A stretch of DNA of 63,945 bases, filler included, from Kipferlia bialata (Eukaryota), in assembly GCA_003568945.1 (NCBI GenBank). It is 5 parts of 5 records of this genome, joined end to end, with 100 filler letters (N's around TTAATTAATTAA, not from the genome) between each part and the next. Parts side by side here need not be neighbours in the genome. Positions count along the whole stretch, not along the records: positions 44,460 to 59,159 come from BDIP01000786.1; 4 more parts are not named here. One strand, written 5' to 3'. Below the pieces are notes generated by a model. That model saw only the letters and a program-made list of their open reading frames with translations. It did no database searches and had not been told where the DNA came from. Shown here in pieces: positions 1 to 59,259 of the stretch (its first letter is position 1; the number at the start of each line of letters is the position of its first letter). Made by a program: the position numbers and the translations under genes.

Positions 1-138
1 TAGGTTTTTGAGTGGACGCCGGGTAGGGGTCCAGAGGTGGGTGTTCATACGCGAGTGATTATTCACTATTTATACCCGAATCTAGAATACTAGATTCAGT
101 GTTTAGGAACTACAACAGCTTATGTACCATTTGGCCAT

Positions 139-3100
139 TTACTCCCCAAATGTGTAAGTCGGCGTGACGGTACAGTGTTCTCTTAGAGCCTCTTGGTCTG
201 AAGAGTCAGAAGCGAGAAGGAGAGGGTGTAGAGATACCTAACAAATAGAAGACCACATGAGTCTGATTAATAGTAGTACTCGGCAACACAGACACAATCA
301 CAGGGCACCTAATATCGGCATCAAACCTTTCATTCCTCATCATGAGAGAGTTCACTACACAACTACTCACCTACTGTCAACAGAAAACCCTTCACAATCT
401 CCTTGCCATCGAACCGGCTCAACATCCACCAGTCCTCAGTGGTGCACAGGAGGAAGACGGTCTCTTGAGGTCAGACATAAATAAATTGTGTACAATAGTA
501 GACATAAATATAGTGTGTACAAAATTGTAAATATAGTATATACGTGACACCATTATCCATCCACCAATCCTGAGTGTCTTCAGAGTTAGACATATGAATA
601 TCTTAGGGAGAGAGAACAAAGGAAGAAAATATCGGGTGAGTCAGAGAGAGAGATTCTACTGAAGACATACTGATGACGGACTTAGTACACCAGGAATTGT
701 ATATAATTGGCTTCATGTGCACAGAATAATATATATAGAATATTCACTGGCGTCCACCCTCAATGATGCACATAATAGCAACAACACCATGGTTGTTGTT
801 AGTAAATAGATTAATATAGTTGTAGGCATAAGATTAGTACATCTATGACTCACCGGCGTCTATCCTGCAGGATGTGTAAGTGGCATATCCCTCCACCATA
901 TCTTTATCAATACACGTGTTTCCATCTGGATCTAGGTCTAGCAAGGGACGGGACCAGAGACACCTGCTGTTACACCACCACACTGATATTATAAATGAAT
1001 GCTGATGAACAGATGTTAGTATAGAGTCATATATATATTACATAGGTATGAGGGGACGGGACCATCGACACATGTGTATAACCATTTATGAGAATAGGAA
1101 TATATGTATGAATCCTCACCGTTGCAGATAGTGAATACTTGCAATACCCATATGTTGATGCACGACAGTAATCCATTTATATACTACAATGTATGTACCT
1201 AACAGTGTCATAACAGTCCACCTCTCTCTCAGTGAACCTCAAGAGTAGTCCACCTCCAATATCCTGCATTAGACAGAGAGATCAGAGTGCAACAATATAT
1301 GTATATATGTATTTGTAGAGAGAGAGAGAGAGAGAAAGAGAGGAGGATTAAGACGATGGAGTATGTCTACCATTATATGGTTACTATGTGGGTGATCCAC
1401 AGTGGATCAATACCTGTACGTGGTTCCCCACTGTGCCTTCTATGCACTTGTGGTCTATCCAGTGTCCTGCAGTTGGCATATAGCATATGTGTGTGAGGAT
1501 TAGTGAAGTGAAGTGAAACAAACGTATGTCGGAAATACATATGCCAATACAGTCTAAAGGTACCAACTTCTATGTTATCATCCGTTAGGACCTTCAGTTC
1601 CTGGTGGAACACTGATACATAAACACAATATCCAGGTATATACTGTACATAGCATATGTATATACTATATACCTACAGGACTCTCTTCGGTTGGCAATAA
1701 CAGCTCCTTGTGGAACAGTGGAGTATGCTAGAAGAGAGTATATACTATATATCTTGAGGTATATACTGAATACCTTGAGGATTGTCATTAGTTGGCAGTA
1801 TCAACTCTTTGTGGAACACTGGTGTGTAGTCTCCACCGAACTCTGACCCAAACACATGGACAGAGCTAAGGGTGAGCTCACATGTTGGAACGATTAGTAA
1901 GTATAAGACTATGTGTATAGACAGCCACTATGATCATACTGCCATGACCTCTGATCCAAACACATGGACAGAGCATAAGATTTTAGATATATTATACACA
2001 TGGACAGAGCTTAGGGTGAGTAAACACTAGTGGATCATCTTCTGCATTGGTATCACCAGATACACGTCCACTTGTCACAATAGACACCTGGTATACCCTA
2101 TACCCTGATACATGTCGTGTGAGTATAGTATATACCTTCCTACTTTCTGCCGTGCATAACCACTTGTCACAACCGGCATATAAAGAACTGTGTAATATAG
2201 TCTGTATGTATACAATGTTTGAAACTATATATATACCTCCCCACTCTCTCTGCCGTGCATGTCCACTTGTCACACTCATCCCAGTGGTTGGGGATATCAG
2301 TGGGGGCAATGGCCTGAGGTTAGCAATAATATTCATATATATATATACAAAATACATATATATGGAGGGAGAGAGACAGATACTTGCCCCACTACATGGA
2401 TCACACCTTGAATACCCTTGTCTGAGTGTCGTATATCCAACCCTGCACTGTGTCTGGTAACCTTGAATACCCTTGTCTGAGTGTCGTATATCCAACCCTG
2501 CACTGTGTCTGGTACGCACCCAAGGTCCTCTGGCTCAGGGACAGAGAGTAGTAATAACTGCAGTTAACATATAGTTGCATTATATAGATAAAGATATTGA
2601 GTGATATACATATATTCATGTACACGCATATATATACATAGGTCCTCTGGCTCAGGGACAGACAGGAGCAATAGCTGCAGTAAATATATAGTTACATTAA
2701 ATAATGATAGATATTACATGGTATACATATATTCATATATACGCATATATATACATAGGTCCTCTGGCTCAGGGACAGACAGGAGCAGTAACTACACGCT
2801 GAGTACATATGTACATATTCACAGTATATGTATATACATATATGTATACCATATATATATTATAGATTATATATATATTTGTATATGTATGGACTCTGGT
2901 ATGGTATGGTATGGTATACACTGGTATAGTATACCTGTACCATCAGGGGTGTGCATGATGGTATATATACATTTGTATAGTATACACTACTTGTACATGT
3001 ACCTCTGTCTCTGACACCCCCACCATCAGGTATGTGCATGTCAGTGCAAGTACATGTGTGTATATTACCTATATGTATATATACATATATACCTCCCTAT

Positions 3101-5425
3101 CTGACACCTGTACCATCAATGGTGTGCATGTCAGTGGGGGTGGGTCGAGGACAGAGGTGGGACAGGGCCAGGTCTGGGGGTAAGTAGTATAATGATGTGT
3201 GGAGGATATACACGCAGAGAGAGAGGGGGGTTGGGTCTAGGACAGAGGTGGGACAGGGCCAGGTCTGTGAGTAAGAAGTGGAGCAGGGAATAAAGAGACA
3301 GAGAGAGAGAGAGAGAGAGTATCAGGGTCAAGTATATTTAGTATTACATACATAACACTCACACATATATACATATATATGTGTACCTCAATGTCCCTAT
3401 CTGTCAGGTCTGTCCACTCCCTTGTGTCCAGAGATAGCTCCCACAGCATACACCTAATGTCAATATATATGTACGAAAGTAGATATATAGGGAAAGAGAG
3501 AGTGAGAGAGAAAGAGACTCTGATGTCCAGAGATAGCTCCCACAGCATACACCTAATGTCAATATATATACATACACCTATTGCGAGAGACATGAGAGAG
3601 AGACATGATAGATGTGGTCTTCATCTTGGGATAGCTCCCCCAGGATACGACACAATACGATACGATTGAGGACAAGAATACATATCAGGTATCGAGACAG
3701 AGAGAGAAAGAGAGACTATATGGCACATCTTCCATAGCAGATATATTCATAAATATGTTTGTATTTCTTAATATGTAGATAGATATAGATATAGATATAG
3801 ACAGAGAGAGTGTATCGTATCGTATCGTATCGTATCGTATGGCCCCATGCCATCTGGCTAGGGGGTCTCTCTCTCTCCATCTCTAGTTATATACATAACT
3901 TGATAGAGTGATGACAACGTACCTCTGTCTCTCCCTCTATATCTACATTGCACATATATATAGTACTTCCACCACCTTTCTATCTTACATACAAATATAA
4001 ATGAATAATTGTATACAATCCTACCTCATGACCGATGCCCCTCATCAGCCTAGGGAGTGTGCCTTCTCTCTCTCTCTCTCTCTCTCTTAATTAATATATA
4101 TTTATGTACATATCTACACTATACCTCTCCCATGCCCCCCATCTCCCTAAAGAGTGGGTGTTCCCACTGACCCAGACATAGACCTAGAGTGAGGAGATAC
4201 ACACGCAGTATATGTCTATACACACATATATATATATAGAGAGAGAGAGAGAAGGGGTGTTCCCACTGACCCAGACATAGACCTAGAGTGAGTATACATA
4301 CAGTATATCAATATGTATATTCATATAGACATAGAAAGAGATAGAGAGAGAGAGTGAGAGTGCGTGTTTCCACTGACCCAGACATAGACATATAGTGAGT
4401 GGTGCTTGTAGATAGAATGACAAATGTATGTATATATATGGAAATAGAGAGAGTAGAGGGGGCTCCCCTCCCACTAACCCAGGCTTAGACCTAGAGTGAT
4501 TCTGTTGCATAGAGAGAGAGAGAGAGAGCTGAAGTCAACAGGCATAGATACTCTGAACGTCTTCCCCCCCCCCATGCACACTGTCTCAATGGTATATTTC
4601 CATAAGTATATATATATATATATATATATAGCATACACGTATATATATACCTTTCCTCCCATGCAAACTCCCACACTGTGTCTCATAGGTAAAACAGGAA
4701 GCGGTAGTCTTTCTGTGGCTACTGAACCACTCTAGGAGTGAGAAAACACTTGAATAGGTAGATATCATGGGAGAGAGAGGGGTGACCTTGAGATAGTAGC
4801 GCTGTACCATCCCAGTCAGTAAGTAATAGAGAAAGAGACAGGGAGGGAATGAGGGAGAGACAGGGGGGAGAGAGAGGAAGGCAGCACGAGAAATCTCATC
4901 GGTAGATACAGTGAATACATATACCTCTGTGATAGTGACTATCACCCAGTAATCTTGAGGGCCAGGGTCTTTAGAGATGACTCTCTCTTGGTTATGTTGC
5001 CCATTGGTTCTCTCCTCTTCATCTTCTGTCTCTTCCTGTCTCATTGCTACACATGATCAATACTCTGTTGCCTCCCAAGTGGACACATCTTGTATGAGAG
5101 AGAGGGGCATCTTATATGTGTAGACTCTATATTCTTTAGATATATAGAGAGGCAGTATACAGAGAGAGAGAGAACTTGTAGTGACCAAGTGATAGGGTAC
5201 AAACAGAGAGGGGGGGGGACCCTAAAACATCATATGTTCCTTGATGTTCAATGAGACAATACGTCTAACAGTACCTTGTATGTGCCCCCACTACACTGAC
5301 TGCATGGCACTAGTACACTCTAGTTCATATATATATCAATATCTACATATTTATATATATGTATATGTATATATGTACCTTGTGTATGCCCCCACTGTGA
5401 AGCCAAGGGTCTCAAGTTCGGTCAG
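139..5425 (-). CDS. Multi-exon kelch-type beta-propeller protein; 5' end not located
   Basis: Hand-spliced GT-AG exons give ...LPLPVLPMRHSVGVCMGGK|VYVWVSG...CMLWELSLDTREW...PLMVQVSDRE|LLLLSVPEPED...GWIYDTQTRVFK|AIAP...RVGS|SVHVFG... and end ...DQEALREHCTVTPTYTFGE* (stop 139-141). GGKVYVW, YDTxTxxF and LDTREW are kelch-like motifs. Confidence 0.6.
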
Positions 5426-5823
5426 CTGAAGGTAGAACTAATTATGAATATAGGATATATATATATTAAATATAGGATATATTGTATATATATATTACAT
5501 GTATATATATAGTAATATTGATGTATATATATAGTGATACTAATGACCAAGGGTCTCGAGAGGAGTGAGCTGTGGGAATAGATATGAATATAGTATGAAT
5601 AGACTTTCTATATAGAGACAATTAGTTATATACTGTTTAAGGGAGAGTGCTGTGAATCCAGGTGAGTGAATGAATAATGAAAAGCATGATGTACACACAA
5701 ATACTAATATTCAGGTGAGAGAAATAGAACCACGATATCCATAAGAACATTAAAAGTGTGATTATGGGGGTGGGGGGGAGAGAGAGAGGGCGGGGGAGGG
5801 GGGGGGGGGGGAGGGGGGGGGAG

Positions 5824-14726: not shown

Positions 14727-14826
14727 NNNNNNNNNNNNNNNNNNNNNNNNNNNNNNNNNNNNNNNNNNNNTTAATTAATTAANNNNNNNNNNNNNNNNNN
14801 NNNNNNNNNNNNNNNNNNNNNNNNNN
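14727..14826. other. Artificial contig linker (N44-TTAATTAATTAA-N44)
   Basis: Exactly 100 bp with a core giving stops in all six frames; identical to three other linkers. Confidence 0.98.
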
Positions 14827-29545: not shown

Positions 29546-29645
29546 NNNNNNNNNNNNNNNNNNNNNNNNNNNNNNNNNNNNNNNNNNNNTTAATTAATTA
29601 ANNNNNNNNNNNNNNNNNNNNNNNNNNNNNNNNNNNNNNNNNNNN
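29546..29645. other. Artificial contig linker
   Basis: N44-TTAATTAATTAA-N44. Confidence 0.98.
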
Positions 29646-30102: not shown

Positions 30103-30353
30103 CTCTAAGACTCAGAGCCACAGCCAAGGGCCCACACTCCACCTCAGCCAAGGGCCCACGATATCCTGGCGACACTGACGGGATGGTGTTGTAAAGAGTG
30201 TGAGTTGCACCATTGTCACCTCGCAACATTGCCTAATCCAATACTTTTGCCTTGACTTGTTTTCCTTCTCAAGCCACCTGTCTTCACTTCAGTTGTTCAT
30301 TCTACCTGCACCTGTCTTGGTCTGAAGACTGGAAGCAGGCCGAGGCTCCTGTG

Positions 30354-33300: not shown

Positions 33301-34994
33301 CACCCCCCCACACAGACGTTGAGGCACCTGCCGAGGCTGATGTCTTTGGCCAGGACGAAGGGTTCCAGCCCCCTCTCGTCACCCCCATCTCCATGGACGC
33401 CCCTGACACCCTCTCCTACAGCCCCACTCTGCATGCACCCGCTGCAGAGACTGTAGAGGGGGACCAGCAGGGATTGGAGGCAGAGGGAGAGGACACCTGG
33501 GCGGACGAGGCCTTCGAAGGGTTTGGGTCCCAGCCTGTGGAGGAGGAGACTGCCCTGCCACAGACCCAGACACAGGGGGCAGAGGTGGGGTTCGACTCCT
33601 TTGATACCTTTGAGGGAGGGTTTGAGAGTGGCTTCACAGCACAGACAGAGACAGAGACACAAGGGGCAGAGGCTGAGGTGTTTGATCTAGCCATGGACTC
33701 CTGGGACACACCTGCCGCAGACCCTGTCCCTGGTGTGGCAGAGATGGGTGTGGGTATGGGTATGGATATGGATATGGGTCTGGACACTGCTACAGAGGAT
33801 GCACCAGTGGAGACACACCCCCAGTCTGAGCCAGTCCCTAGTGGATCCCTGCCCCAGCCTGAGGTGCAGGCCTCCGCCCAGGTGCTGGACATGTTTGATG
33901 ACCTAGCCGAGTATGACGCAGACCCATCTGCACAGGTGCCTGTGTCTAGCGAGGCTGGGTTCACACACACAACCGCACACACTGACACTGAGCTACCTGA
34001 GAGGTCAGTGGTTATGGGGGATGATGTCCAGACTAGACCCAGGGCTGACCTGGGCGACCTAGTCTTTGACAGCCTAGACACATTCGATGGGGAGGCAGGG
34101 GCAGAGGTAGAGGCAGATGATTGGTCCACCAGTCAGGCCGTGGCCCCCCAGCCATCTGAGCTGACATACATCCCTGAGGCAGTGTCAGCCCCACAGGTGC
34201 AGGCAGAGGCAGAGGCAGACTTTGGGTTCGACTCCTTTGCCGCTGACCCTGCTGTCATGCCAGGCATTGATACTGTCACTGACACTGCTGATGCTGTTGA
34301 CCTGGGGGTGCAGGGCGAGAAGGACGTGGATGCCATGTTCGGAGGCTTTGGGTCCTTTGAGGATGCCTCCGTGCCTGTCCAGACTGAGGCTGAGACAACT
34401 GCAGCTGTCTCTGTCCCTGCCCCATCCGTGACCATGGCTGAGGAGGTGGCTGAGGACCCTGCCTTCGCTGCCTTTGACACTGACTTCACCACTCACACTG
34501 ATGCTGGGCAGGGGAGTGTGGAGCATGATGTTTTTGCCACCACTGTCACTGGCAATGTCTCTGACACCTTCGGGGACACATACGCCATGGGGGGTGTAGA
34601 GGCTGCAGGGGCTGACAATGGGGGGGATGAGTTTGGAGAGTTTGGAGGGTTTGAGTCGGCTGATGCATTCACTGCAGGGGATGCTCTATCCCTAGGTGGT
34701 GACATGGGAGACGGGTTTGGGGGCTTTGAGACAACAGGAGACACAGGGTTCGGTGGGTTTGACTCCCACGACACCAACCCCCAGGCTGTGTCCCTCCCCT
34801 CCGTCGACCCCTTCCACACCAAGGTGCCTGTGGCTGACACCCCCATCCCTGTCAACCCTGTGCTGTCAGATGTCGACGCCTTCTTCGGATTGGACATGCC
34901 CCAGACATCGGGGGTGCAGGCAGCGCAGCCTGCCGCTACTGCTTCTAGTGCCTCTGCTTTTGGCCAGGGGACAGGGGACCTCATCGACTTCTAA
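30354..34994 (+). CDS. Intronless ~1550-aa acidic disordered protein rich in FGxF/DPF/DPW motifs, ending DLIDF (candidate clathrin-adaptor accessory protein)
   Basis: Uninterrupted 4.6-kb ORF with first ATG at 30354. Motifs FGDF, FGEF, FGGF, FGAF, FGSF, DPW, DPF; C-terminus GDLIDF*. Confidence 0.8.
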   Translation: MGDPASINPGQRLPGAATGMVPCPSLQAMASVYSVAEEAMDRYRYLDRLVSSYKVVSSTPVPVLPLPTPVVSLPGTSHGHKAVTAQQVTADGETALDEFCLPSDTGVPSSEAASPDDTAEDGSPWAEEGEAMAFDDDAFTAEGDAFGEGDAFASGGFDGDAFETEAFEADAFGGDSFAAADTGFDTGFDTAFAAEEGENGQEGAGDGFDGFGQPEAEREVPMDTTHVEGGDDAFVFDNGTDDGTDASLAGTDSGTEAPTPPEAEAEGFDDDGFGFDAMDDATDAPFGFQASDGPMPQGEGEGEGGADSQVTDHTLTGNALTEDWDEGMEGMEGAEVEALDMDMDMDMDMGMGMGGELQEYEGDGFDAFGAFDTTFDTAQEGETQGEGETQAEGDGFGFDDTFDAPEESPLEGEAEAEAVGGVDEGDGFDAFGFDGTFDAPGDTPIEGELEGDAGVELGEGGGFDGFGEFDDAFEAPLDTPIDTPLDTPIDTPIDTPIDTPLDAPLDAPVEEEVAEEVEAETEVEGEEGELEAEGDMEAMDGEWDGEGEEEEEDAGVFDAFGSFADTFPQAEGGTEGGFPEDDFAAFDPAPVTADEDEGVSEGVVQAETDGVSLSLADDPAPLPTQEGVTETATETETETQAADPWADGFGDFSQEGGVVSGSVSVSTAEGGMGGFDDFDMDGVTAPSHTPAEEGVLGTEEIGEETLEGETLGQEGPGAFEVDMGMGGDMDFGVSDGLFEAPAPQTETEAEAEVQGLDALDSVGFGLPEVHDVHPQTTAAPFDMDDMFGSMTARPGVTEGGDSGTGFDMTLESLVMGGEAEGDGVEEREGEMVAETETVVPTEELDGFDDPFAFETEAETKTGVETETGVETGAEGERETGASVEVGDSAVVEPAEAEAKAEADADWTVGVASEGEGAEQGEAEACVTDGTGLDMEWGADDTPHPTDTLAEGGDESIVKEVPPAESRPIPEASFDIDSLFASPAPPHTDVEAPAEADVFGQDEGFQPPLVTPISMDAPDTLSYSPTLHAPAAETVEGDQQGLEAEGEDTWADEAFEGFGSQPVEEETALPQTQTQGAEVGFDSFDTFEGGFESGFTAQTETETQGAEAEVFDLAMDSWDTPAADPVPGVAEMGVGMGMDMDMGLDTATEDAPVETHPQSEPVPSGSLPQPEVQASAQVLDMFDDLAEYDADPSAQVPVSSEAGFTHTTAHTDTELPERSVVMGDDVQTRPRADLGDLVFDSLDTFDGEAGAEVEADDWSTSQAVAPQPSELTYIPEAVSAPQVQAEAEADFGFDSFAADPAVMPGIDTVTDTADAVDLGVQGEKDVDAMFGGFGSFEDASVPVQTEAETTAAVSVPAPSVTMAEEVAEDPAFAAFDTDFTTHTDAGQGSVEHDVFATTVTGNVSDTFGDTYAMGGVEAAGADNGGDEFGEFGGFESADAFTAGDALSLGGDMGDGFGGFETTGDTGFGGFDSHDTNPQAVSLPSVDPFHTKVPVADTPIPVNPVLSDVDAFFGLDMPQTSGVQAAQPAATASSASAFGQGTGDLIDF
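31776..31878 (+). repeat. 12-bp coding minisatellite (GATACACCCATT-like; DTPI/DTPL/DAPL)
   Basis: About eight tandem units visible in DNA and protein. Confidence 0.9.
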
Positions 34995-44359: not shown

Positions 44360-44459
44360 NNNNNNNNNNNNNNNNNNNNNNNNNNNNNNNNNNNNNNNNN
44401 NNNTTAATTAATTAANNNNNNNNNNNNNNNNNNNNNNNNNNNNNNNNNNNNNNNNNNNN
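44360..44459. other. Artificial contig linker
   Basis: N44-TTAATTAATTAA-N44. Confidence 0.98.
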
Positions 44460-44647
44460 GATAATTCACATCAGGACCTTAACCTGACGCCTTAACCCCT
44501 CGGCCATCCGTACACATGCAAAATGGAAAATACGCATACACCAACCACCCTTCAATATACCATCCTCAATATATATAGCTCCACAAATACATTATCCTTT
44601 TAAAAATACTAATACAATAATCGTATATTATATAGCCAGGCAAATAC

Positions 44648-47600
44648 CTTGGCAGCACATACTGGGGCAGGGCGAGCAGGTTGATAATGAATGTGGTGTG
44701 GACAATGACCTATGGTCAGAGAGGCGCTCACACTATAATGATACAACTAATAGTAGTATGCATTTATAGCCTCTATCTAGCCTATTTCGTGACCATACCT
44801 GCAGCTTCAGGGACTTATCGCTGTTCTCTGTGATTGTCTTGAACAGCTCAAAGATCTCTGCCAGGTGGAGAACAACAGGGTCACGGGAAAGGTGGGACCT
44901 GGGAGTCAATCACTTAGTACAAAGTGTAGTATACACTTAGACACTATACCTGGGATGCACGTGGTGTCTTACTACCATGGTGATGCCTCTGCTGAGGGAC
45001 CCATAGAACTTGGAGGCATTCTTATCCTGAAATAAGGGTGCAGAGAGAGAGAATAAGGGTACAAAGGAGAGAGAGGGACCCATAGAACTTGGAGTCATAC
45101 CTATCCTGGAATAAGGGTGTAGAGAGAGAGATAGAGAGAATATGTAGATAGAAATAAAGAGAGAGGGGGGGCAGTGTTATTGAACACGGAATCCGTCAGT
45201 CCGTCTAGCTGCACATTCAGAGCACTGTTGACAAGAGATACATGGGTATCATATAGTACTGAACATCATATACATGATCGCTTCATATAATCTATGTGTA
45301 TATATATATATTTGCTTGTACCTTTAGTCCGTCCAGCAGCACATTCAGTGCACTGTTGACATAGTAGTCCACAGTGCCACTCTGAGGTGAATAAGGGTGT
45401 AGAGGGGGAGAGAGAGAGAGAGAGAAACCAGTGATATAGTAGTCCACAATGCCACTCTGAGGTGAATAATGGGGTAGAGAGAGAGAGAGAGAGATAAACC
45501 AGTGACATAATAATCCACAGTGCCACTCTGATGAATAAGGGTGTAGAGGAAGAGAGAGAGGAGGACACGCTGAACAAATAACACTAAGTGTTACATACCT
45601 CAATGTTGCTCTGGTCCTCTCTCTCTCTCTCCCTCTCTCTGTGTATCTCTGAGAGAGAGGAGGATGAGGACGAGGAGAGAGCGGCGATCCTTGCCTGAAA
45701 TGAGCAGATTAAAGGGAGAGTATGTGGGTTTATGGGTGAATGTCTAGAGAGAAAATTACGAAAGAGAGTGAGAGACAGAGAGAGAGAGAGAGAGACATAC
45801 CAGCTCGTGTGCGGATGCAGCTCTATCTGGAACGAGAGTCTCTCTCTCCCTCTCTCTCTTCTTCTCCCTGAGGTTTCTACGCTTGGCAGAGTAGCCATAC
45901 AGCCACATCCTGAAATAAGGGTCTAGGAGGAGAGAGAGAGAGATAGAAGAAGAAGAGACCAATACCTGGTGTCGACTGGCTCTACTGTCTTTGGCTCCTG
46001 AGAGGAGTCTCTCTCTCTCTCCCTCTCTGTCTGTCTGTCGCCCTTGTACCTCAGGGCCTCCCTGCGGATGAGAATGACACATATGCAATATATAGTACAC
46101 TGGGTACAATTACATTACCTATCCCTCTCTGTCTGTCTGTAGTGCATGGGGTCCAAGGGTCCATGAGTATATAGTACAGTAGACTAGTATATATATATAT
46201 ATATATATATTATTAGAGAGAGAGAGAGTACCTGTCTCTCTCTGTCTGTCTGTAGTGCATGGGGTCCAATGGACCAAGGATACCAAGGACACGGGTGGCC
46301 TAGAGAGTCAATTGGAGAATCACATTGATACTAATTATACACAGTGTATATACATACCTCCACTCTCAGTGCCTAGTCGCTGTACTATATCCCTACACCA
46401 ATAATGCATATGCATTCACATTCTAATATATATATTAATGAGTTCTTTACCTCCACTCTCAGTGCCTTATCGCTGGTGCCACTGCTCAGAATGCCTGGGG
46501 GTGAAGGGCAAAGAAAGAGAATATGCAAACATATAGGAAACTCCAAAAACAGACGGTCATATACTATATTCTGTAGAACAAACACATACATACACTGTTA
46601 CGAAAACCTAATAATGCCTTAGATAGCCCAGGTGCCTGTACAAATATATTTATATGATTAAATATACCTAACAAGGCCTTGCTTAGACCTGGTGCCTGTG
46701 TCTCCACTATGGCAGAGGTGACAACACATAAATACTCATATCAGATTACTATACTACTCCTCATATACGATTGCTATATAGTATAAGGTATATACTACTG
46801 TTATTCAGTACCTAGTAACGCCTTAGATAGCCCAGGTGCCTGTGTCTCTACTATGGCAGAGGTGACACCGGTGTTCTGAGACAACAGACCCAAGGAACGT
46901 ACAGCGGCCTGAGGTTAGGTGTGTACTCTCGAAAGGACACTGAACAGTTCGAAAAGTAACTTTTTCTCCCTCTTTGCGTCTGTGAAGTCCAGCAGGGCAG
47001 AGAATATGGAAATTTAACTACAAATACGTGTAATCACGAATATCGGGACATCGTTGCCATACCTTCTGCCTCTTTGCGTCTGTGGAGTCCAGCATAATAA
47101 TACTACTATATACACAATTATATATATATATATCGTATACTAGCATAGGGAAAGACCTTCTGCCTCTTTGCGTCTGTGGAGTCCAGCAGGGCAGACCTCA
47201 AGGAGCACAGAATGCTTCCTAGCATTAGAGAGAGAGAGAGAGAGACAGAGTATTTGAGGAAAGAGGTTGCTGGATGGCCACTGGTATACACTACTAGATT
47301 AGTTAGATAATATATACACATATATATATATATATATATATATAGTACCTAGCGATGGCAGGAAGTCCACACTCCTCAGTGCAGCCAGTTCGCCTGGGGG
47401 TTAAGCATCGCGTAAGTCACTGTCTGTAGAATATATACAATAGGGTCTTAGAGAGAAAGGGACCTATAACGGATAGAGAGAGAGAGGAGAGAGAAAGGAC
47501 TCACCCAGTGCAGCTATGAGGGGTGTTGTGATCTCGGTCTGACCCTCATTGTCACGAAGGACACGCAGCAGGACATCTAGTGTCAGTATACGCGAGATAG

Positions 47601-50223
47601 GCGTAAGAATAGTACGCGAAATAGAGGGAAGCACACGCAGCAGGACATCCATAATTATTACAGGCGAGAAAAGAAACTTCAATAATTCACAAATTATGTC
47701 CTGTATATGTAGTGCAACCATCATTGAGTATTGTAGAGAGCACACCTAGTATGGTTGAGACATATGCCTTCAGGGCACTCTTGGAACTCGATATCAGTCT
47801 GCTTAGGAGCCTAAGGGTTAGTGATACATCATTAAGAATATATATCTGACATGTGTACACTAATGGGTGTCTCAGAAATGTGATCTCACTATCTACTAAA
47901 TTCAACAAAGATACCTTGCTGCATATGCCCTCATCTCCACATTGGCCCTTCCTTCTCTCTCTTTGTGTGTTCCTCTCTACACCTGCCCATATATATACAC
48001 ATATATATATACTTACCTTGCTGCATATGCCCTCATCTCCACATTAGCACCGCCTTCTATCTGACTCAGCAGCTGCACTGGGGTGAGAGCTATTAATATT
48101 AATAGAGACCAAGAAATATGGCGACTTAAGAGACTCAGCAGCTGCACTGGGGAGAGAGAGATGATCAAGATATCATGTGTTCATACTACATGGGGCATTA
48201 CATTCATAAATGAATATACTATTGCATGTATACCTAGCATCTTTCTGATGAATGAGATGCACTGGGCAGTGGACACAGAGACAGACATGGTTCTATATTA
48301 TATATGTATATATGTATACTAATGTATGAATATAAATAGACTATCGTATATATACTAACCTAGTGTCTTTCTGATGAATGGGATGCACTGGGCAGTGGAC
48401 ACTGAGACAGACACAGAGCTCAGCCTGACAGTAAGGGGGCAGAGAGAGAGAGGGAGAGAAAGCACAATTATTAGGCAGGGAGGGCAAACGTCGACTGAAA
48501 AGAAACGAGGAACGAAGAATCCTAAATTACTTATGCAGTAAATTAACCTTCCAATAACAGTTAAGGCCGCCTCGCTGACTGCTATGCACCCATCGTTGAC
48601 AGCAAAGAAGAGACACACACATATAGTATAGAGAGAGAAGAAGACACGTGAATACTAACCTTCCAATGACAGTCAATGCCGCCTCGCTTACTGCTATGCA
48701 CCCATCGTTGACAGCAAAGAAGAGGCGCTGCAGATTGGTATCAGAGGCACAAAGGAGCCTGAAGATAAGGGTCTANNNNNNNNNNNNNNNNNNNNNNNNN
48801 NNNNNNNNNNNNNNNNNNNNNNNNNNNNNNNNNNNNNNNNNNNNNNNNNNNNNNNNNNNNNNNNNNNNNNNNNNNNNNNNNNNNNNNNNNNNNNNNNNNN
48901 NNNNNNNNNNNNNNNNNNNNNNNNNNNNNNNNNNNNNNAGAGAGAGAGAGAGAGAGGCGCTGCAGATTGGTATCAGAGGCACAAAGGAGCCTGGAATTAA
49001 GGGTCTAGAGAGAGAGTACTTGATTTGCCTTGAGATTGATACTGGTTTATTACAGTGCGGCATTATATGATTGGCCCGTGGAGGGAAATAACATATCAAC
49101 GTTACCTGTCTACACAGTGGGGCAGTGAGACCAGGACAGCATGGCGAACCTGGCATAAGGGTGTAGCTAGAGAGAGTAAGGGTGTAGAGAGAGAGAGATC
49201 AATATAGCAGTGACACCAGGACAGCAAGGTGGACCAGAAAGTAAATGTGTTGTGTGAGAGAACACAACTGACAGCCCACCAAAACAGTACAAGCTACTGT
49301 GTGTATAGTCAAAAACAATACAATGCATACAGTAGTAATTGTGTACCTGGTCTGACAGGTCTGTCCAGAATATAGATACAAATGCATGTAAATGTATACA
49401 AGAGAACATCTATATATATATGGATTGTGATAATACCTGGTCTGACAGGTCACTGACAGCCACCACCACCAGTCTGTCCAGAATGAGAGAGACATCACTC
49501 GTGAACTTGGGAGGAAGGATCCTAAAATAAGGGTGTAGAGAGAGAGAGAGAGAGAGACATCACTCGTGAACTTGTAGCACAGCCAAGTACTTGTAGGCAC
49601 GAATAGAATAACATATATCTTGTCATATCCTTTCTCTCAAGAAAATCATCATCATCATCTCACGTACTTGTTCTTCAGAAACGTACATTAACATAAATAT
49701 GTATGTATATTATACATTGTATTACATCTTCTGTCGTACTTGTTCTTGAGAAAGGGTGGACTGACAGTGTGGCAGAGGGACAGGGCAGCCAGGAGCCTGA
49801 AATAAGGGTCTAGAGGGAGAGAGACTGAGAGAGAGAGAGAGAATGATGCATAGGGACAGGGCAGCCAGGAGCCTGGAATAAGGGTCTAGAGGGAGAGAGA
49901 TTGATCAATTGACTGAAGTCCAAACTTGATCCATGAATAGTAGTACTTTCAGTGATATGAAAGATTCAATTGATATATACCTGATCTCCGTGTGTGCCAC
50001 ACCCAAGTATCTACTCAGCTATATACACAATGTGCAAATATGTATACATATTCACATATATATACATATATATAAATGTATATGTATCTATCTATCTATA
50101 TATATATATACACCTGATCTCCGTGTGTGCCACCCCCAAGTATCTGCTCAGCACAGCACTTCTCAGGAAGGAACAGAGGAGGACACCGGTGAAGTCAAAG
50201 GAGGAGAGAATCTAGAGTGAGAT

Positions 50224-50262
<39 letters not shown>

Positions 50263-53200
50263 GTGGAGGGAACATAGCAGGACACCAGTAAAGTCAAAGG
50301 AGGACAATATCTGGAGTCAAGGAGAGAGAGAGAGAGAGAGACAGGAAGTGGAAGGAACAGAGGAGGACACCAGTAAAGTCAAAAGAGGACAATATCTAGA
50401 GTAAGATAGGGAGAGAGGGGGGGGGGAGTAGAAGGAACGGAGGAGGACACCGGTGAAGTCGAAGCCGGAGAGGATCTGGAGTAAAGGAGTAAAGAGACAG
50501 AGGAGTAGAGCAGGGTTACCTTCAGAGCCTCTATGATGCCTGTGACTGTGGGCTGGGAGGCTTTGCTTAGAGGTCGGCCTGAGATTTAGGGTAACAGGAG
50601 TGAGACAGACACGCTGAGAGAGCACGAAAGAAGAGAATAATTACATTTAGTCAACATAATCACAACACTATACATATCATCTTACTGATCCCAAAGATAG
50701 TGGAGACAGAATAGAACAACATGTATACACATATTAGGGCCACTCTGAGGCATTCTTGTGCTGCGGCATAATGAAATGTTGCATATATACTCCTATTTAC
50801 CAAATGCACACATGCTTCTATATATATACTCCTATTTACCAAATAAGAACATCATCCCATACAATAGTATAATATATAATTAATATATAATATATAATAG
50901 TATAATAGTATAATAATACTGTTCACAGTAAGAAGGATGCCCACCTATCATAGTCACCCTGACACTCCTGTCCAGTCTGGTACCACTAAGCGTATATACA
51001 ATATTCATTTCAAGTATTAGAACATACTATATGTACTAGAGTGCTAAATATACCTATCATTGCCACCCTGACACTCCTGCCCAGTCTGGTGCTGCGTCGT
51101 CTGGGTGTCCTGCTGCTCCAGATCTAGGGTGAGACACATACTATCTTACACACATTGACTAAAGAATATATTGTAGTGATGAATGATCCCTCGGTGATGA
51201 GAGAAAGCAACAGAGTGTGTGTAATAGCGGGTGTGAGAGAGTCTGCGAAAGAAATAGAGAGAGAGAGAGAGTAGTACCTGTGACCGAGCTGGGGATGCGA
51301 CATCAGGCAGGGATGACAGACCATCTGAGAATTAGACGTTATCTAGTTTGAAGGGAATAAACCTGCTAATACAGTATCCAAGCTACACTATTAGAGAAAT
51401 GTATACTATGTCGCTACCTACAGACGTCCTGCTCCCCGTCTCCCCCTCGCTCTCCCTCGCCGTGTCAAGAGAGTTCTCTCCCCCTAGACCCCTATCTCTC
51501 CCTGAGAATGAGAAGGTTGAAAGACACTTGGTGCAAGACATAGATAGAGAAAAGATGACGAAAGACTATGCGATTCTGTGAGAGAGAGTGTGTGTGTACC
51601 TAGGGAAATTGACAGAGAAGAAGTTGTGTATGGTGTGTATACACATTTGTATATGCAAAGGGAAAGAGAGATGGATACCTAGGAACATTGGCAGAGACGA
51701 AGATATATTGACTCTAAATACACTATATATATACATAGAGAGAGAGAGAGTACCTAGTGACATTGGCAGAGAGGCACCGGACACACTGTACGTGGGAAGG
51801 ACACTGGACGAGGCAGTCTCCTGGTGTGAAAAGGGTGTAGGGGGAGAGAGAGAGAGACATGCCGTAACAACAAGGGGGTAACGGGAATCTAAAGAGTGTA
51901 TCCAAGGGATGGAGAGAGAGAGAGATTCCCTTTTCTACCTGATAGTGGTATGAAATGGCCCCGTCCTCCCACTCGTCTCTTTCTCTCTCTCTCTCCCTGT
52001 CGCCCTCATTTGCATAGGATTCTGGGAACGTACAATCCTGGATGTAAGGCTCATATTGCTCGTCACCAAAAGAATAGAATAACTAAGAGGAAAGAGGGAA
52101 ACCCCTCATGCTGAATCATTGACACGCAAAAACAACTAGCACAAACCCATATAGGAAAGGTGGTCACACAAGTCAACTTCAGAGTCACAATTGAATACAA
52201 TCTACTACATAAATGTCTTCTACCGAGCTATAATGACACAGAGAATAATACTAACCTCATACAAGTATATTGTGGCTGTCAGTTCTAATAAATATATATA
52301 CCAAACTATATACTGTATAATCATCTGCTACCGAGTCATAGAAAACACAGTAGCGGCATTACTAACCTCATATAGGTATGTTGTGGCTGCAAGTTCTCTG
52401 GCCAGGAGCTCAAGGACCCTGAGGGTGAGATGAACCGAATAGTAGAATAGTAGAATACAATAGTTGAACTAGGATTACTATCATATACAGGAGAATATAA
52501 CTTGCTAGCTCAAGGACCCTGGGATTGAGAAAGAGACATAAGTAGAACAACAATGCAAGAAGAAATTTCTATTATCGCTGAATAGATACGAGAACACATA
52601 ACTTGACTGAATGCTTGAGGGAGAGGAAGAAAATACCATTTCATTGCACTATACTAATATATACATCTCTAGTATGAAATATAGTCACACAAAATATACA
52701 TATATATATACTAGTTCTCTACACTGGTTCTGAATCCAATAGTACTATACTAATAGTATTAACAATATTCACCACATGTACAAATACGTATACACATACC
52801 TTGACTGGATGTCTGGCTGGAGGGATGGGCAGCACTTGGCAATGTCTGGAGGGGTCAGAGACACATATCAATCGAACAAACAAATGTACTAATAATAATA
52901 ATTCCTATACATTGCTGACTGTATGCATTAGCATTTGGCAATGTCTGGAGGGTCACAAAGCTAAAGGAAAAATACCAAGTATTGAACCACTAATCTGTGC
53001 CTGCCTCTCTGTATGTATATAGTACTATAAACAGCACAGGATAGTACACTATACCTGCCAGGAATGGTGCCACCTCGGGTGTCAGCTTCCAACAGCACGT
53101 CTCATCGACAGGGAAGGTGGCATTGAGAGCTAGGTATGAGAGGGAGAGAGACAGAGAGAGAGAGATAAGAAAGCTTGTCTCATCTACTGGGAGGGTGGAA

Positions 53201-55355
53201 TTGAGGGGTAGGGAGGAGCTGGAGAGAGAGACAGAGAGAAAGGACGTGCCTTCTTCGAGTTATATAGCAATTAGGACTCAAAGAGAGACCGTATACGAAT
53301 AGGAAGATGCGACGCTGTACTCTCAAGCATGCACTTGTATACATCTCAAGGAACACTACTCACCCAGCATATCCCTGACTTTGTTCCGGATGGACGGACA
53401 GTGCCTAGGTTTAGAGTGAATTCTATATAGTCTCAAAATGAACAAAAACTAAAAACTATATATATAATAACGATGAGAGCGAATATATCCACGCTCAACC
53501 GTTGCTGCGAACAGCACAATATGAACAGATTTACAGTGCACTCTATATGTAGACACACTATAGTACCTAGCCAATGCTGCTACTGCGCACAATGCACTGG
53601 GCACTAGGAATGACACTACATATATACAAACTCAATATAACATATGCATAAATACGATGACATATATAAACGTGATATATATATAGTAGATAGGTACCTA
53701 GCCAATGCAGCCACAGCACACAATGCACTGGGCACCAGGAATGACCATATACAATTATACATATAATGCTATAGTCTATCTACACTACATACACACCTTG
53801 CCAGTGCAGCCACAGCACACAATGCACTGGGCACCAGGAATGACAGGGTGGCAGTGACATTGGCAGCAGAGGCAGAGGCAGGGGCAGAGGGGGAGAGAAT
53901 CAACTGGGAATAAGGGTCTAGAGAGATGTATATATTGAGAGATAGTCATGTACGTTTGCAACCGTGAAGCAATAGTAGTCACCCATATATACCTTGCAAT
54001 AGTTGAGTAATGGGGATATGTCCCCTGCTGCCTCTGTGCCCAAGCGGGGTAAACAGGAATGCTATATATAATGCATATATATATATATATATATATTGTA
54101 ATGTATATAGTATAGTATACAATATATACAATTACATGGTAATGTGTATTACTATACCTTGCAGTAATTTAGAAGGGGTGATATGTCCCCAGCTGCCTCT
54201 GTGCCCACCACAGAGTGTAAACAGAAAACTACATATACATAGAAATATGTAATAGTGTACCTTGCAATAGTTGAGTAGTGGTGATATGTCCCCTGCTGCC
54301 TCTGTGCCCACTACAGAGACCAGGTAGCCAGCAGATCTAATGATTAGAGAGATATAGAGGGGGAGGGAGAGAGAGAGAGATGTGCCCACTTCAGAGACCA
54401 GGTAGCCAGGAGACCTCAGTGAAAGACAGGAAAAGGGAGACGAGAGAGCGAGAGAGCTAATTAATACTACACACCTGAGGGCTGTCTCTCTCTTGAAGGA
54501 CCCAGTCCGGAGTGCTGAGAGCAGGAAAGCTAGACTGGACCTGGCATGAGAAGGAACTCTGAAGATACCATACGTAAAAGTACACGTAAATATACATATT
54601 AATATATGTGGTCATCGAGATGTCTCCCAAGTGGCACATACAATCAATGAGTGCCATGTATTGCTCAAGTACTACACATTGGTAGACACAAATATGCTGC
54701 AGTACACACATGTATATAGTAACGCATTAGGCATATTGTATAATGTATACTACCTGACATGCGGTGCAAAGCCGTGTCTGTCGAGTCTGGCCAGTTTGGG
54801 TATGCACATGGCAACGGCCTCACGTACCTGGGTATAGGTATAGACGTTCAAACGTTTGGTTGGGTAAAATAAGGTCTATGAGCGTGTCTGCTATCCGCGT
54901 ATGACAGCACACATATAGGTAAACATATATAGATTAGTATGTATGTCTATAGAATACTATATATAGTACTATATACAGTACCTGTGCGTGTCTGCTATCG
55001 ACGTATGACAGCACATATAGGCAAATGCACACAGATAAGAATATATGTCTATAGAATACTACATATAGTACCTGGGCGTGTCTGCTATCCACGTATATAT
55101 ATATATATAAGTATATATGTCTATATAATACTACATATAGTACCTGGGCGTGTCTGCTATCCACGTATGACAGGACCACTCCAGTGATCTGTCTCACAGA
55201 CTCTCTCTCTCTCTCCCTATCTCTCTCCCTGTCCCTCTCTGCTGCACTGGGGTGAGAGAGATATGTGGCACTATACATATACATCGTTGCATATACATAC
55301 ATACCCTCTCTGCCATGTGATGTGTGCATCCATGACCTGGCCCAGCTGCAACAAG

Positions 55356-55399
<44 letters not shown>

Positions 55400-56089
55400 C
55401 TATATATATCTATATATATTCATACCCTCTCTGCCATGTGATGTGTGCATCCATGACCTGGCCCAGCTGCAACAGTCTGGTGCGGATAAGGGGGCCAGGG
55501 TTACTGATACTCAGTAACCAATACTATAATTACAAATATCCATATACATACACTACACAATAGTGTATGTAGAGTCCAGTGCGGATTTGGAGTCAGTGGG
55601 GACAGAATTAGAAATCAAAACTTGCCTAGTATATACTGAAAAGGGAGAGTATAGATTCATACCTAGACTGCAGCGAGGCAAGGGGCATCTGCTCACTTGT
55701 CCTCTCTCTCTCCCGCTCTCTCTCCCTCTCGCTAATTGGCGATCTTTCAGTGAGGTTTCAAAGAGATACTTGTCAGTAGAATGAGGGAGCTAGTGTGTAC
55801 AAAAGAAGAGAGTGCGAAGTAAATGACTGAGTGGATATATGCACTTTGTGTTTAGAGTATATGTGTAGTGTAGAGTACGTACCCGGGCATTGTCAGAGAC
55901 AGGGAGAGCGCAGAGAGGTTCCCATCCCTCACCGAACCCTTGGGTCCAATCTGGCCTGGTATTTAGTATTTAGTATTTAGATATATATACAATATATATA
56001 TATATATATTCATAAGAGTATTGGATGTATATGATATAGGTACTCTCTGAACCCTTGGGTCCAATCTGGCCTGGAATGTTAGATTCAAT

Positions 56090-56132
<43 letters not shown>

Positions 56133-56709
56133 AAGGAGTATTGGATATGTATTATATATACTCACCGAACCCTTGGGTCCAATCTGGCCTGGTATGTTAG
56201 ATACTCTATTAATTATACTGACATATACTTGCTAATAGAAATGATATAGGTACATTCTGAACCCTTGGGTCCAATCTGGCCTGGTGTGTTAGACATATAA
56301 TAGATATATAGATATATATATATGTATGTATGTATATGTTCATAAGAGTATGATAAAAATATTGGATATATATGACATAGGCACTAACTGAACCCTTGGG
56401 TCCAATCTGGCCTGGTATCAGATACAAAATGCATGTCATATATAGTATTTCTTATATAGTAACTGACTCTACAGGATAGAGGTACTGACAACTACTCTCA
56501 GAACCCCTGGATCCAATCCGGCCTGGTATGGGAGAACTAGGTACTACCAACAATACATGTTGTGTATATCAATAGAAAAATAGATACATACCATCATCCC
56601 CTTCTCTCTATGTATATCCAATTGTAAAGTGACTATTTACCTACATATATATATATATATACTATACCTAGCTGCTGGTACTGGCCGAGGATGCCTGGGA
56701 GACTGGACC
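44648..56709 (-). CDS. TOR: Target of rapamycin kinase, N-terminal HEAT-repeat half (many short exons); FAT/FRB/kinase lie beyond the contig end
   Basis: Spliced exons are collinear with TOR HEAT region as recalled: VREAVAMCIPKLARL; ILSSFDFTG...RYLGVAHTEIR; NLQRLFFAVND..IAVSEAALTVIGRLSS; PFIRKTLVQLLSQIE; RLLSRLISS..ALKAYVSTIL; ALGELAA; LDSTDAKRQKAAVRSLGLLSQNTG; LRVEATRVLGILGPLDP; DYYVNSALNVLL. Further upstream exons are possible to about 57450. Confidence 0.88.
48776..48938. other. Assembly gap (N run) inside a TOR intron
   Basis: 163 Ns. Confidence 0.98.
55931..56527 (-). repeat. Six dispersed copies of a ~26-bp TOR exon 5' end plus acceptor
   Basis: GAACCCTTGGGTCCAATCTGGCCTGG at about 55934, 56049, 56167, 56259, 56390 and a diverged copy at 56501, separated by TA-rich DNA. 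Confidence 0.9.
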
Positions 56710-57720
56710 CTGAGGGTAAGAAGAGAATGAATAAGGGGTGTAGAGAGAGAGAGAGAGAGAGAAGGATGCCAGGCAGACTGGGGTGAAGAGAATTACAGAA
56801 ACCAAAGAGGAAAGAAGAGAGCGTAAGGGAGAGAGAGAGACGCAGAGAGCTGCAAAGGGGAGAGTATGATCCTGGGCGGGTGACAGTGTGTTGAAGAGTA
56901 TTATACTGGGGAGAGAAGGAGAAGCGATAGTGCATAGGCCTGGGACACTGGAAGGACAGCACCTATACACTGACAGATATACTGAGAGATATACTGAGAC
57001 AGAGAGAGAATACTAATGGTGTGATGGACAATACGAATGTCACTCGACAGTACATAGTGAATATAGTATACGTAGAGAGTAAAGAAGGACCATTGATATA
57101 GACTAGTTAATAGCCTTGGTATAGAGAGAGAGAGGGAGATAGAGAGTAATCTATGAGCCGCACTAAACGTGGAGACAAGCATCTGTATAATAGACTAATT
57201 GTCGACATAGGGAAGAACGACAGAGGAAGAGAGAGACAGAGACAAACAGTACGTTAAGGTGTTGAGAAGAGAGAGGGAATGATGGTACCCCTCCTACACC
57301 ATACACCACATTATACACACCAGAGTGTCTCACCTGTCGCATGGACTGACATACCGTCTCTCTGCCTCCTCCTCCCTCGCTCTGACCCTCAGGCTCCACT
57401 CTCTGCCTTACTCTCCTACTCTCTTCTCTGTCCCCCTTACTTTCGTAGGTCCTTAGGGTTCTAACAGGTATCAGGGGTCCACTAAATAGTACTGAGCTGG
57501 TGGGTGATATACTAGCGTCCACGCTACGCAGACTGGAAGGAGTCACTCTATATAGAGACACCGATCCAGTGACCAAATCAAAAACAATCCTGCACCCCTA
57601 CTGCACAACTTTATACACCACTTCTTCCTAAAGGTTGAATCCTACACCCTTTTCGTGTTTGCCAGCATGACGAGGTTGAGCGTGAGGCATCAGTGGCAAG
57701 GCTCTTTTGAGCAATCAGAC

Positions 57721-58974
57721 ATGAAGTACCTTCTGATTCTTGCCCTCGTGGCCCTTGCTTGCTGCAATGTGGTCACTGTGACCTCTGAGGTGGGTGGATC
57801 AGCTATAATTCGAGAACTGATGGTCTTGTGTTGTTTGCGTGTATTTCCTTGCCTCCTGTCCATTGGTATCTCGAATACAGAGTCTGTTGTGTCTACATCA
57901 CACTGCTTTTCTGTATATATGCCTTTAATTGCTGTTTCTGCCATCATATGCACTAATTGATTCCTGACGTGTAGGATGGGATGCACTTCATTCTCCAATG
58001 CCACTACACTTCTGCTTGTTACTGTATATCAGTGCATATACGGTTGTAATTTTACCTATGGACAGTTCGACGGAGATTGGTGTTCCCATAGCTGTTGGAT
58101 TTCCGGTCAAGTGTAAATAGTAATTGTACAGTGTATCACATTCATTGCCCCATATACCTTTCTCACCTTCCAGAACTGGGATGAGGTTGCCGCTACCCCC
58201 GCTTTTGTCAAGTTCTACGCCCCCTGGTGCGGACACTGCAAGCACCTTGCCCCCATCTGGGAGGTACGATCGATCTCTCTCTCTCTCCCTCACCTGTCTC
58301 TCTTTGTATTTAACAGTTTACCCCTTTCAGCTGTTATTGTCTACAACAACCCTTTCTTACCAGCTAGGAGCTCGCTGACGAGGTTGCCGGTGAGGAGGTT
58401 GTGATTGGAGAGATTGACTGCACTGAGAACGAGGAGCTCTGCCGCAAGTTTGAGGTATTGCTAGTACACTATACATCCAGTATTTGATTGTGTTGCCATT
58501 TTGCTTAATGTGTGTTCTCACCCTCCAGGTCCGTGGATACCCCACCCTCATCTACATCGAGGGAGAGGCCCAGGTCACCTACAACGTACGTCAAACGGAT
58601 AATTACTCTAATCCCCATATCAGTTGTCTATTATATGTCACATCTATACTTACCATTAGGGCCCCCGTGAGCTGACCGACCTTGCCACCTGGGTTGTTGC
58701 CATGATGGGACCCGCCGTGCACACTGTCGACACCATCGAGGCTGAGGTATATTCATGCAGTGTCTCTTAACGATGGATTGATATTTTTGGTATCCATGCA
58801 CAATTATTTCTATGCCTGTCCCCTCCTTCTAACCCTCAGTCCTCCATCTACTTTGTCAACACCTCTCTCTCTCTCTCTCTCTCTCTTCGTCTGCACCCCT
58901 TATACCAGTCCTCCATCTACTTTGTCAACACTGGCTCCAGCGACCTCTTCGACGAGGTGGCCAACACCCACAAG
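57721..58974 (+). CDS. PDI: Protein disulfide isomerase (signal peptide + WCGHC thioredoxin domain), truncated at contig end
   Basis: [15 protein letters not shown]...|[36 protein letters not shown]...[26 protein letters not shown]...[10 protein letters not shown]. Confidence 0.93.
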
Positions 58975-59103
58975 GTATATAATATTTGAATGTATTTATA
59001 TATATATATACATATACATACATATACATACATATACATACATATACATACATACAAGGAGGTGGAGGCCAACACCCACAAGGTATGAGAGCATGCCTAT
59101 CAT

Positions 59104-59154
<51 letters not shown>

Positions 59155-59159
59155 TGTGT

Positions 59160-59259
59160 NNNNNNNNNNNNNNNNNNNNNNNNNNNNNNNNNNNNNNNNN
59201 NNNTTAATTAATTAANNNNNNNNNNNNNNNNNNNNNNNNNNNNNNNNNNNNNNNNNNNN
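59160..59259. other. Artificial contig linker
   Basis: N44-TTAATTAATTAA-N44. Confidence 0.98.

Follow-up and report, generated by a model that had tools for sequence, protein, structure and literature searches.

The window analysed here, a stretch of 63,945 nucleotides from the free-living fornicate Kipferlia bialata, is made up of five scaffolds of about 14.7 kb each, joined by fixed spacers of N and stop letters (14727-14826, 29546-29645, 44360-44459 and 59160-59259), so that genes on different sides of a join are unlinked. Our subject is a set of partial exon copies in the introns of one gene on scaffold 44460-59159 (BDIP01000786.1), the N-terminal part of TOR, which could be modelled as 41 GT-AG exons (median 68 nt) with an open frame of 960 codons before the model runs off the scaffold, the kinase half lying beyond the scaffold end. 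The peptide of exon 39 is 100% identical to the NCBI entry 'TOR, partial [Kipferlia bialata]', and the deposited protein agrees with the model except at exons 3, 4, 14 and 37. The mTOR domain PF11865 (HEAT region) gives a weak match in the model (E 0.001, below the curated cut-off) and is carried by the deposited identical protein; by these sequence matches the host gene is assigned to K. bialata TOR. The genome has been published as an Illumina/SPAdes draft with 124,912 introns and reported as diploid by its k-mer profile, in a paper whose main text contains neither the string 'duplicat' nor 'heterozyg' (PMC5874029).

The copies were sought by codon-blind local alignment of all 41 TOR exons against their own adjacent introns, and a score of at least 30 was reached in 32 of the 80 adjacent exon-intron pairs, versus 0.83% of 1560 non-adjacent pairs. 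The 45 alignments reduce to 43 copies once two are dropped, an exon-5 match that is a GA repeat and a match of exon 34 on DNA already counted as the exon-33 copy; these lie beside 24 of the 41 exons and align over 1523 of the 9823 TOR intron bases. In an inverted-orientation control, 6/100 tests scored, all at exons with GA repeats. Coding GA microsatellites are found in TOR exons 3, 5, 14 and 34-36, where they give Arg-Glu repeats in the protein. Thirteen further exon chains of the window were modelled by training a crude finder on TOR and correcting its output by hand; among them the helicase is the only gene comparable with a deposited protein, the other labels being working names, with Pfam matches for the thioredoxin, glycosyl transferase 4 and RING/BRAP2 chains. 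These chains add 30 copies, 19 in a gene on the first scaffold (a hand-made model, with no Pfam match for the three exons tried) and 11 elsewhere. As many as 62 of the resulting 73 copies fall in two genes, at the most AT-rich parts of the window (1-5800 and 44460-57400, GC about 0.40-0.46), and 6 of the 14 exon chains have none.

The copies measure 15-65 nt, with a median of 42% of the exon, and their geometry is that of a tandem duplication across one splice site. Those downstream of an exon reproduce its 3' end in 33/37 cases and are directly followed by GT in 28, those upstream reproduce its 5' end in 34/36 and are directly preceded by AG in 21, and both exon ends are reached by one downstream and no upstream copy. 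A single copy is present on 37 of the 52 exon sides concerned, and two to five on the other 15. The spacer between the live exon and the nearest copy is 42-96 nt in 49/52 cases (two are shorter and one lies across an N gap), donor-side spacers being TA-rich and acceptor-side spacers CT-rich. Its floor of 42 nt comes near the length of the shortest intron free of copies (47 nt); a candidate cause is that splicing requires some 45 nt of intron next to a live site. The intron flank of the copy resembles the live flank in 17/25 acceptor-side and 7/29 donor-side copies, and can be unrelated even beside an identical copy. Dinucleotide repeats are over-represented at the inner junctions (P 5e-4 and 2e-6); inner splice signals are no commoner there than background, AG preceding 12/37 and GT following 12/36. 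Intron length tracks copy number (rho 0.74, 135 introns), the median rising from 92 nt with no copy to 210 with one, 307 with two and 467 with three or more.

Other origins for this anatomy were considered. Decayed mutually exclusive exons were rejected, since these would be whole exons with both splice sites, which the copies are not, and since the size of a unit shows no relation to that of the exon (rho 0.07 over 51 units). Spacers as former whole introns were also rejected, being TA-rich or CT-rich intron halves without inner splice signals. As for a cDNA or mRNA template, 2 of 146 tests extended past an exon junction, by 7 and 15 nt, both imperfectly and starting with the copy's GT, while the others stop at the splice site. 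Beyond its end, the distal exon-31 copy (46593-46639) agrees with the first bases of exon 32 at 9/15 positions, a level reached in 0.7% of background comparisons; seen in one of 27 copies, this hints weakly at a spliced template or is due to chance.

Differences between copies and live exons are predominantly silent. The TOR copies carry 82 silent and 47 replacement nucleotide differences, distributed 27/26/76 over the three codon positions. The silent share would be expected at 0.28 if the exon were frozen and at 0.44 if it also drifts at silent sites, corresponding to a ratio of replacement to silent differences per site (pN/pS) of 0.5, and the second null, with a drifting exon, is the right one. 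Both are rejected for TOR (P = 1e-16 and 8e-6, respectively, with a transition/transversion weight of 2). The TOR pN/pS is 0.23 (0.15-0.36, bootstrap over 24 exons), that of the first-scaffold gene 0.30 (0.16-0.41), and that of all 73 copies 0.28 (0.20-0.37); among the 14 TOR copies with at least four differences, three are all-silent versus 0.23 expected. A silent excess beyond neutral decay had been claimed in a sequence-only reading of this DNA from six exon-copy pairs, and the drifting-exon comparison bears it out. The six pairs do lie at the coordinates given and show 4, 7, 4, 6, 7 and 7 codon differences, 35 in total, and no amino-acid change; the counts are exact, but two of these 'cleanest' pairs were cut at favourable edges, since extending 46119-46162 to 46178 adds three replacement codons and extending 50269-50310 to 50265 adds one. 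The excess is real but weaker than the six pairs suggest, and a subset of the copies carries it. An apparent donor-versus-acceptor asymmetry in TOR (Fisher 0.003) was discarded, as it fell to 0.17 over all genes and to 0.43 and 0.67 after strict trimming, and the lack of indels in 2420 aligned nt was not used as evidence because the gap penalty truncates gapped copies.

The two kinds of difference behave as if they had separate histories. Silent and replacement densities are uncorrelated over 30 trimmed TOR copies (rho 0.04), as expected if the two kinds arise at different times. Changes confined to a single copy amount to 39 silent and 32 replacement, though the copies are non-coding. Among 21 pairs of neighbouring copies the nearer is the more diverged in 6, serial order holds in 10 and 5 are ties; at exon 8, the nearer copy (54158-54215) is more diverged than the farther (53993-54042), and the two differ from each other by 8 silent changes and no others. 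Variants are shared in mosaic fashion among copies and live exon at exons 9, 20 and 31, and at exon 20 the farthest acceptor-side copy groups with the live exon at silent sites where both nearer copies differ. The copy-exon differences comprise 65 transitions and 64 transversions, with 53 GC>AT versus 46 AT>GC.

That the copies are present in the DNA is supported by several observations. Scaffold 44460-59159 contains no exact direct repeat of at least 55 nt, and therefore gives a short-read assembler little room to invent tandem copies. In a DNA run (X1), 0.95 of 877 sampled words of 49000-57400 are present, and contigs derived from its reads were compared with the scaffold over 1171 bases (52780-53950): one of 1907 bp matches 52780-53735 with 0 differences and includes the exon-9 copy with seven silent changes, and another, of 119 bp, joins the nearer exon-9 copy to exon 9, the 40-mer common to both having a depth of 935 versus 406-454 for unique pieces. 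Because X1 is possibly the assembly's own data, this comparison tests the assembler and not the sample. An artefact in which separate haplotypes or loci were stitched together could be imagined for a draft short-read scaffold with an internal gap, over the few bases for which contigs were compared, but the missing long repeats, the separately built contig across the most diverged exon-9 copy and the doubled depth of the shared word make it exceedingly improbable. The gap, of 163 N, has just across it an identical start of exon 24 (48953-48990) with a different acceptor flank, possibly a scaffolding duplicate.

The copies have at most one splice site each and are likely unused in mRNA. In a second run (X2, RNA by guess), a 2799-nt contig joins exons 9-10-11-12 at CT..AC joints with 0 differences, carrying the live exon letters and skipping the 392-nt intron that holds both exon-9 copies; it is one contig, and rare isoforms are invisible in contigs. 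Use at the RNA level, which the sequence-only reading had offered as a candidate, would involve minor isoforms or recursive AG|GT splice points, with some selection kept, and would accord with the AG|GT at the end of 27/28 GT-bearing downstream copies (112/135 in live exons) and with a spacer floor so near the shortest copy-free intron. We nevertheless consider it decidedly improbable: the RNA-type contig skips both copies in its path, the inner junctions have no AG or GT above background, and codon selection is not expected from recursive splice use.

The suggestion that the copies are now under protein-level selection was not supported. Replacements reach near-invariant residues (P583S and R522H), one copy has an in-frame stop, stops make up 4/96 replacements versus 4.6% expected, conserved TOR columns are not avoided by replacements (mean 0.36 vs 0.33; 19 replacements in 238 codons), and an excess of conservative replacements by BLOSUM was looked for and not found (P 0.17). 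These results also bear on the proposal of an active reservoir, in which copies donate to live exons across homologs in a large population while selection keeps the copies protein-neutral and exon diversity is raised. The all-silent divergence of the exon-8 copies and the mosaic variants at exons 9, 20 and 31, which show exchange of some kind, would fit such a reservoir, but the invariant-residue replacements and the near-expected number of stops do not. We simulated a 50-nt copy under four types of same-chromosome model (neutral decay, conversion with lethal back-transfer and loop-out among them), and pN/pS stayed at 0.51-0.55; the reservoir gives 0.53-0.55 by conversion and 0.51 by loop-out, figures that cover its same-chromosome form only, the form that the sequence-only reading had listed and that cannot bring the ratio below about 0.5. 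Same-chromosome exchange remains near 0.5 because exchange that exposes replacements erases silent differences equally fast. On the whole, an active reservoir seems to us improbable.

The codon signature is beyond the reach of the same-chromosome models tested, and the sequence that was copied must have a protein-coding past exceeding what a duplicate made on the same chromosome permits. When the simulated template was an allele with 0.10 silent divergence, pN/pS came to 0.24, and of the candidate mechanisms previously listed, templating from divergent alleles is the best fit. We therefore lean, at somewhat better than even odds, toward the explanation that the copies are dead exon-edge duplicates of the type called 'mirages' in lancelets, whose exon part was copied from, or exchanged with, a divergent working allele on the homologous chromosome and later decayed; this would need alleles about 10% diverged at silent sites. 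The silent differences, perhaps 0.09-0.16 per silent site at birth, would have been present when the sequence was copied or overwritten from a working allele, and the replacements would have accrued afterwards.

As to how such copies may form, we infer the following route. At a TA or CT repeat within the intron, a break or stalled fork would be repaired from a homolog with which homology is found only in exons, the introns of the alleles having diverged; the intron half of the homolog and then part of its exon would be copied before end-joining. Whole-exon copies would be purged, whereas copies with one splice site would be ignored by splicing and lengthen the intron, and exon-limited allelic exchange could then reshuffle which allele occupies the live exon or a copy. 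Fornicates have been reported to have neither Rad51A nor non-homologous end joining (NHEJ) while keeping two Dmc1 (PMC8516963), and the route may suit them because DMC1 is reported to tolerate mismatches (PMC7809202) and crossovers in a hypervariable fungus to prefer exons (PMC4209137). A wider proposal, which we regard as rather doubtful, is that introns in such a Dmc1-using, Rad51A-less and NHEJ-less lineage are a running archive of allele fragments, captured genome-wide, driving intron growth and at times returning to live exons; if so, one genome would record and reuse the silent diversity of its population.

Several results weigh against a cross-allele origin. High allelic diversity of the species is assumed; no second allele was seen in the 1171 bases compared (0 other letters and no divergent exon contig, although contigs drop rare variants), which together with the X1 word share of 0.95 indicates that heterozygosity in this isolate is not high here. 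Scans of metagenomes with TOR and the helicase of the window returned 190 and 19 pattern matches, none confirmed as a relative, so gave no second strain, and no report on Kipferlia heterozygosity was found among the matches listed in the literature searched. An allelic divergence of 0.2 yields a copy with six silent and no replacement changes in only 3% of simulations, and therefore some templates must be still more distant. Nor does a cross-allele origin account for the spacer floor of at least 42 nt. The remaining points are those on which ordinary same-chromosome mirages in neutral decay would rest, the silent excess then being produced by a drifting live exon, by silent sites that change faster in exons than in intronic copies and by a handful of extreme cases in a single gene. 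Without the six pairs the TOR pN/pS is 0.34 and departs from the drifting-exon null with P = 0.052 only; taken by themselves, the TOR copies on the acceptor side are compatible with that null (0.45, P 0.4); the 11 copies at nine exons of the remaining genes give 0.57, with a wide interval (0.17-1.54); and the likeness of most acceptor-side flanks to the live flank is what same-molecule duplication predicts. Two genes supply most of the copies, and some are plainly same-molecule duplications with matching flanks, among which the copy nearest to exon 5 is a young one. However, the bootstrap reaches 0.5 in 0.06% of TOR and 0.3% of second-gene resamples, exon silent sites would have to change about three times faster than those of the copy with no GC or transition skew indicating exon hypermutation, and serial order is violated in 6/21 neighbouring pairs. 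Same-chromosome decay is thus unlikely, though not negligibly so.

Templates could also have been homeologs or paralogs that an earlier hybridisation or doubling of the genome had left and that were afterwards lost or homogenised. One set of copies, at around seven silent changes per 50-58 nt and with the TCT/AGC serine switch in one of them, suggests a deep split, and several genes show the pattern; but no close TOR paralog turned up, the next matches being 32-35% identical (over 516-1644 aa only) and identity at most 38% among the 150 matches listed (relatives within one 50% cluster are hidden), and the divergence takes graded values between 0 and 7 instead of two values, all of which leaves this origin quite improbable.

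Whatever the template, the structure itself is known, and the sequence-only reading, which knew of no description, was only half right on this point. Tandem duplications of exon-intron boundaries, the mirages, have been reported in amphioxus Adh3, the globins BflGb6 and BflGb9, troponin C and PGBD5; they occur on both donor and acceptor sides, often keep AG or GT and leave splicing undisturbed, their mechanism being described as unclear (PMC3087553; PMC3902484). Like them, the TOR copies are placed head-to-tail across an exon-intron boundary, on both sides and many with AG or GT, and leave splicing unaffected, here in one RNA-type contig across one copy-bearing intron. Lancelet mirages are reported to form minisatellite-like arrays whose units are 81-100% identical and evolve in concert, whereas in Kipferlia, a fornicate protist, 37/52 exon sides have a single copy, donor-side intron parts are mostly unalignable and the differences are silent-biased. 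The array-like identity is partly matched by the 15/52 sides with two to five copies and by the flank likeness of 17/25 acceptor-side and 7/29 donor-side copies. The main text of PMC3087553 does not contain the word 'synonymous', and the part of the earlier novelty claim that stands is the silent bias: neither it nor a protist mirage was reported in the literature searched, with the original Adh mirage description and the supplementary alignments of PMC3087553 outside its coverage. New here are mirages in a protist, mostly as single copies, with unalignable donor-side flanks, silent bias and a spacer of at least 42 nt.

Among published mechanisms, the one that comes nearest is repair-mediated duplication by synthesis-dependent strand annealing (SDSA), described as rare captures of proximal chromosomal DNA in vertebrates (PMC2671141). 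SDSA duplications are likewise short and closely linked and take in exons together with their splice sites; their own junctions are described as having filler or microhomology. Unlike them, the Kipferlia copies fill 1523/9823 bases of the TOR introns, are tied to exon edges and would have had a divergent allelic template. The AG|GT tandem duplication of Rogers and the break-repair introns of Daphnia also leave duplicated exon sequence and splice signals inside introns (PMC3443670; PMC4202315), but the exon-linked repeats reported in Daphnia are of 4-12 bp and the Kipferlia copies of 15-65 nt, and no new intron is formed in Kipferlia, where existing introns grow. Intron gain by AG|GT duplication was rejected, as over 135 introns the intron start matches the next exon at 3.68 versus 3.69 and the intron end the previous exon at 3.86 versus 3.96 matches per 15 nt, with no excess over other exons. 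Silent donor cassettes, such as chicken immunoglobulin (Ig) pseudogenes and those of the trypanosome variant surface glycoprotein (VSG), keep codon structure through exchange with a live gene and are dedicated arrays that diversify one locus. In contrast, the gene concerned here is a housekeeping kinase, the changes are silent and back-donation is a candidate.

Mirages have so far been a lancelet curiosity, and in the Kipferlia window they account for much of the variation in intron length. The codon signature separates a same-chromosome from a cross-allele origin, and the same pN/pS test is applicable to animal mirages. Should the allelic explanation be true, a single assembly would give a handle on population diversity and on break repair in a eukaryote without Rad51 and NHEJ. 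There is also a practical effect: the deposited TOR model begins exon 37 at the acceptor of a copy (45382-45456), which gives it 25 extra residues from copy and spacer, and the copies therefore mislead gene prediction. The features located are collected in Table 1.

Table 1. Location of the TOR gene model and of exon copies in the window (silent/replacement differences are relative to the live exon)
Feature	Position	Strand	Remarks
TOR gene, N-terminal part	44648..57352	-	41 GT-AG exons, open for 960 codons
Five acceptor-side copies of exon 2 (55883-55955)	56043..56522	-	most classic mirage-like array
Copy of exon 4	55305..55353	-	identical over 49/51 nt; own GT
Three donor-side copies of exon 5	54879..55096	-	nearest identical, with matching intron flank
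Donor-side copy of exon 8 (54261-54336)	54158..54215	-	7 silent/0 replacement; own GT
Second donor-side copy of exon 8	53993..54042	-	2 silent/0; short upstream junction motif common to both exon-8 copies
Donor-side copy of exon 9 (53797-53903)	53698..53745	-	2 silent/0; present in DNA contigs, skipped by RNA-type contig
Distal donor-side copy of exon 9	53567..53615	-	7 silent/0; within 1907-bp DNA contig (0 differences), skipped by RNA-type contig
Replacement-rich copies of exons 11, 13, 15, 18	53172-53205, 52256-52286, 51679-51697, 50945-50981	-	
Three acceptor-side copies of exon 20 (50114-50211)	50265-50304, 50350-50389, 50431-50475	-	
Donor-side copy of exon 20	49981..50019	-	2 silent/0
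Decayed acceptor-side copy of exon 23	49207..49234	-	R522H (near alignment end), column 99% Arg
Donor-side copy of exon 24 (48660-48758)	48548..48612	-	4 silent/0
Decayed donor-side copy of exon 25	48234..48287	-	P583S, where 97% of TOR relatives have Pro
Copies of exons 26, 28, 30	46964-47001, 47063-47094, 47628-47648, 47915-47960, 48132-48146	-	
Donor-side copy of exon 31 (46812-46908)	46668..46723	-	7 silent codons, among them a TCT/AGC switch of serine codons; no replacement
Distal donor-side copy of exon 31	46608..46639	-	2 silent/0; less diverged than the nearer copy
Donor-side copy of exon 32	46358..46382	-	in-frame stop
Donor-side copy of exon 33 (46232-46299)	46119..46162	-	4 silent/0; alignment extends to 46178 with 3 replacement codons
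Copies around exons 37, 38	45073-45105, 45198-45233, 45432-45456, 45503-45527	-	silent and replacement mixed
19 copies in unrelated gene on first scaffold (exons 371-4731)	558..4490	-	pN/pS 0.30

Some smaller observations concern individual copies. At the copy of exon 4 (55305-55355) an AG is so placed that a 51-nt alternative exon with both splice sites is conceivable, and the deposited protein skips exon 4. The first-scaffold gene has, at 2407-2461, an identical copy of a 53-nt exon end only 2 nt from the exon, in which the duplication junction itself provides the live GT, and, at 1575-1724, two old in-frame copies, one of them with mostly conservative replacements, unlike the TOR copies; a paralog is a possible source of these two. 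Elsewhere in the window, an intron-free acidic open reading frame occupies 30237-34994 in a genome that is otherwise intron-dense; it runs to 1585 codons, with Asp, Glu, Gly and Phe abundant.

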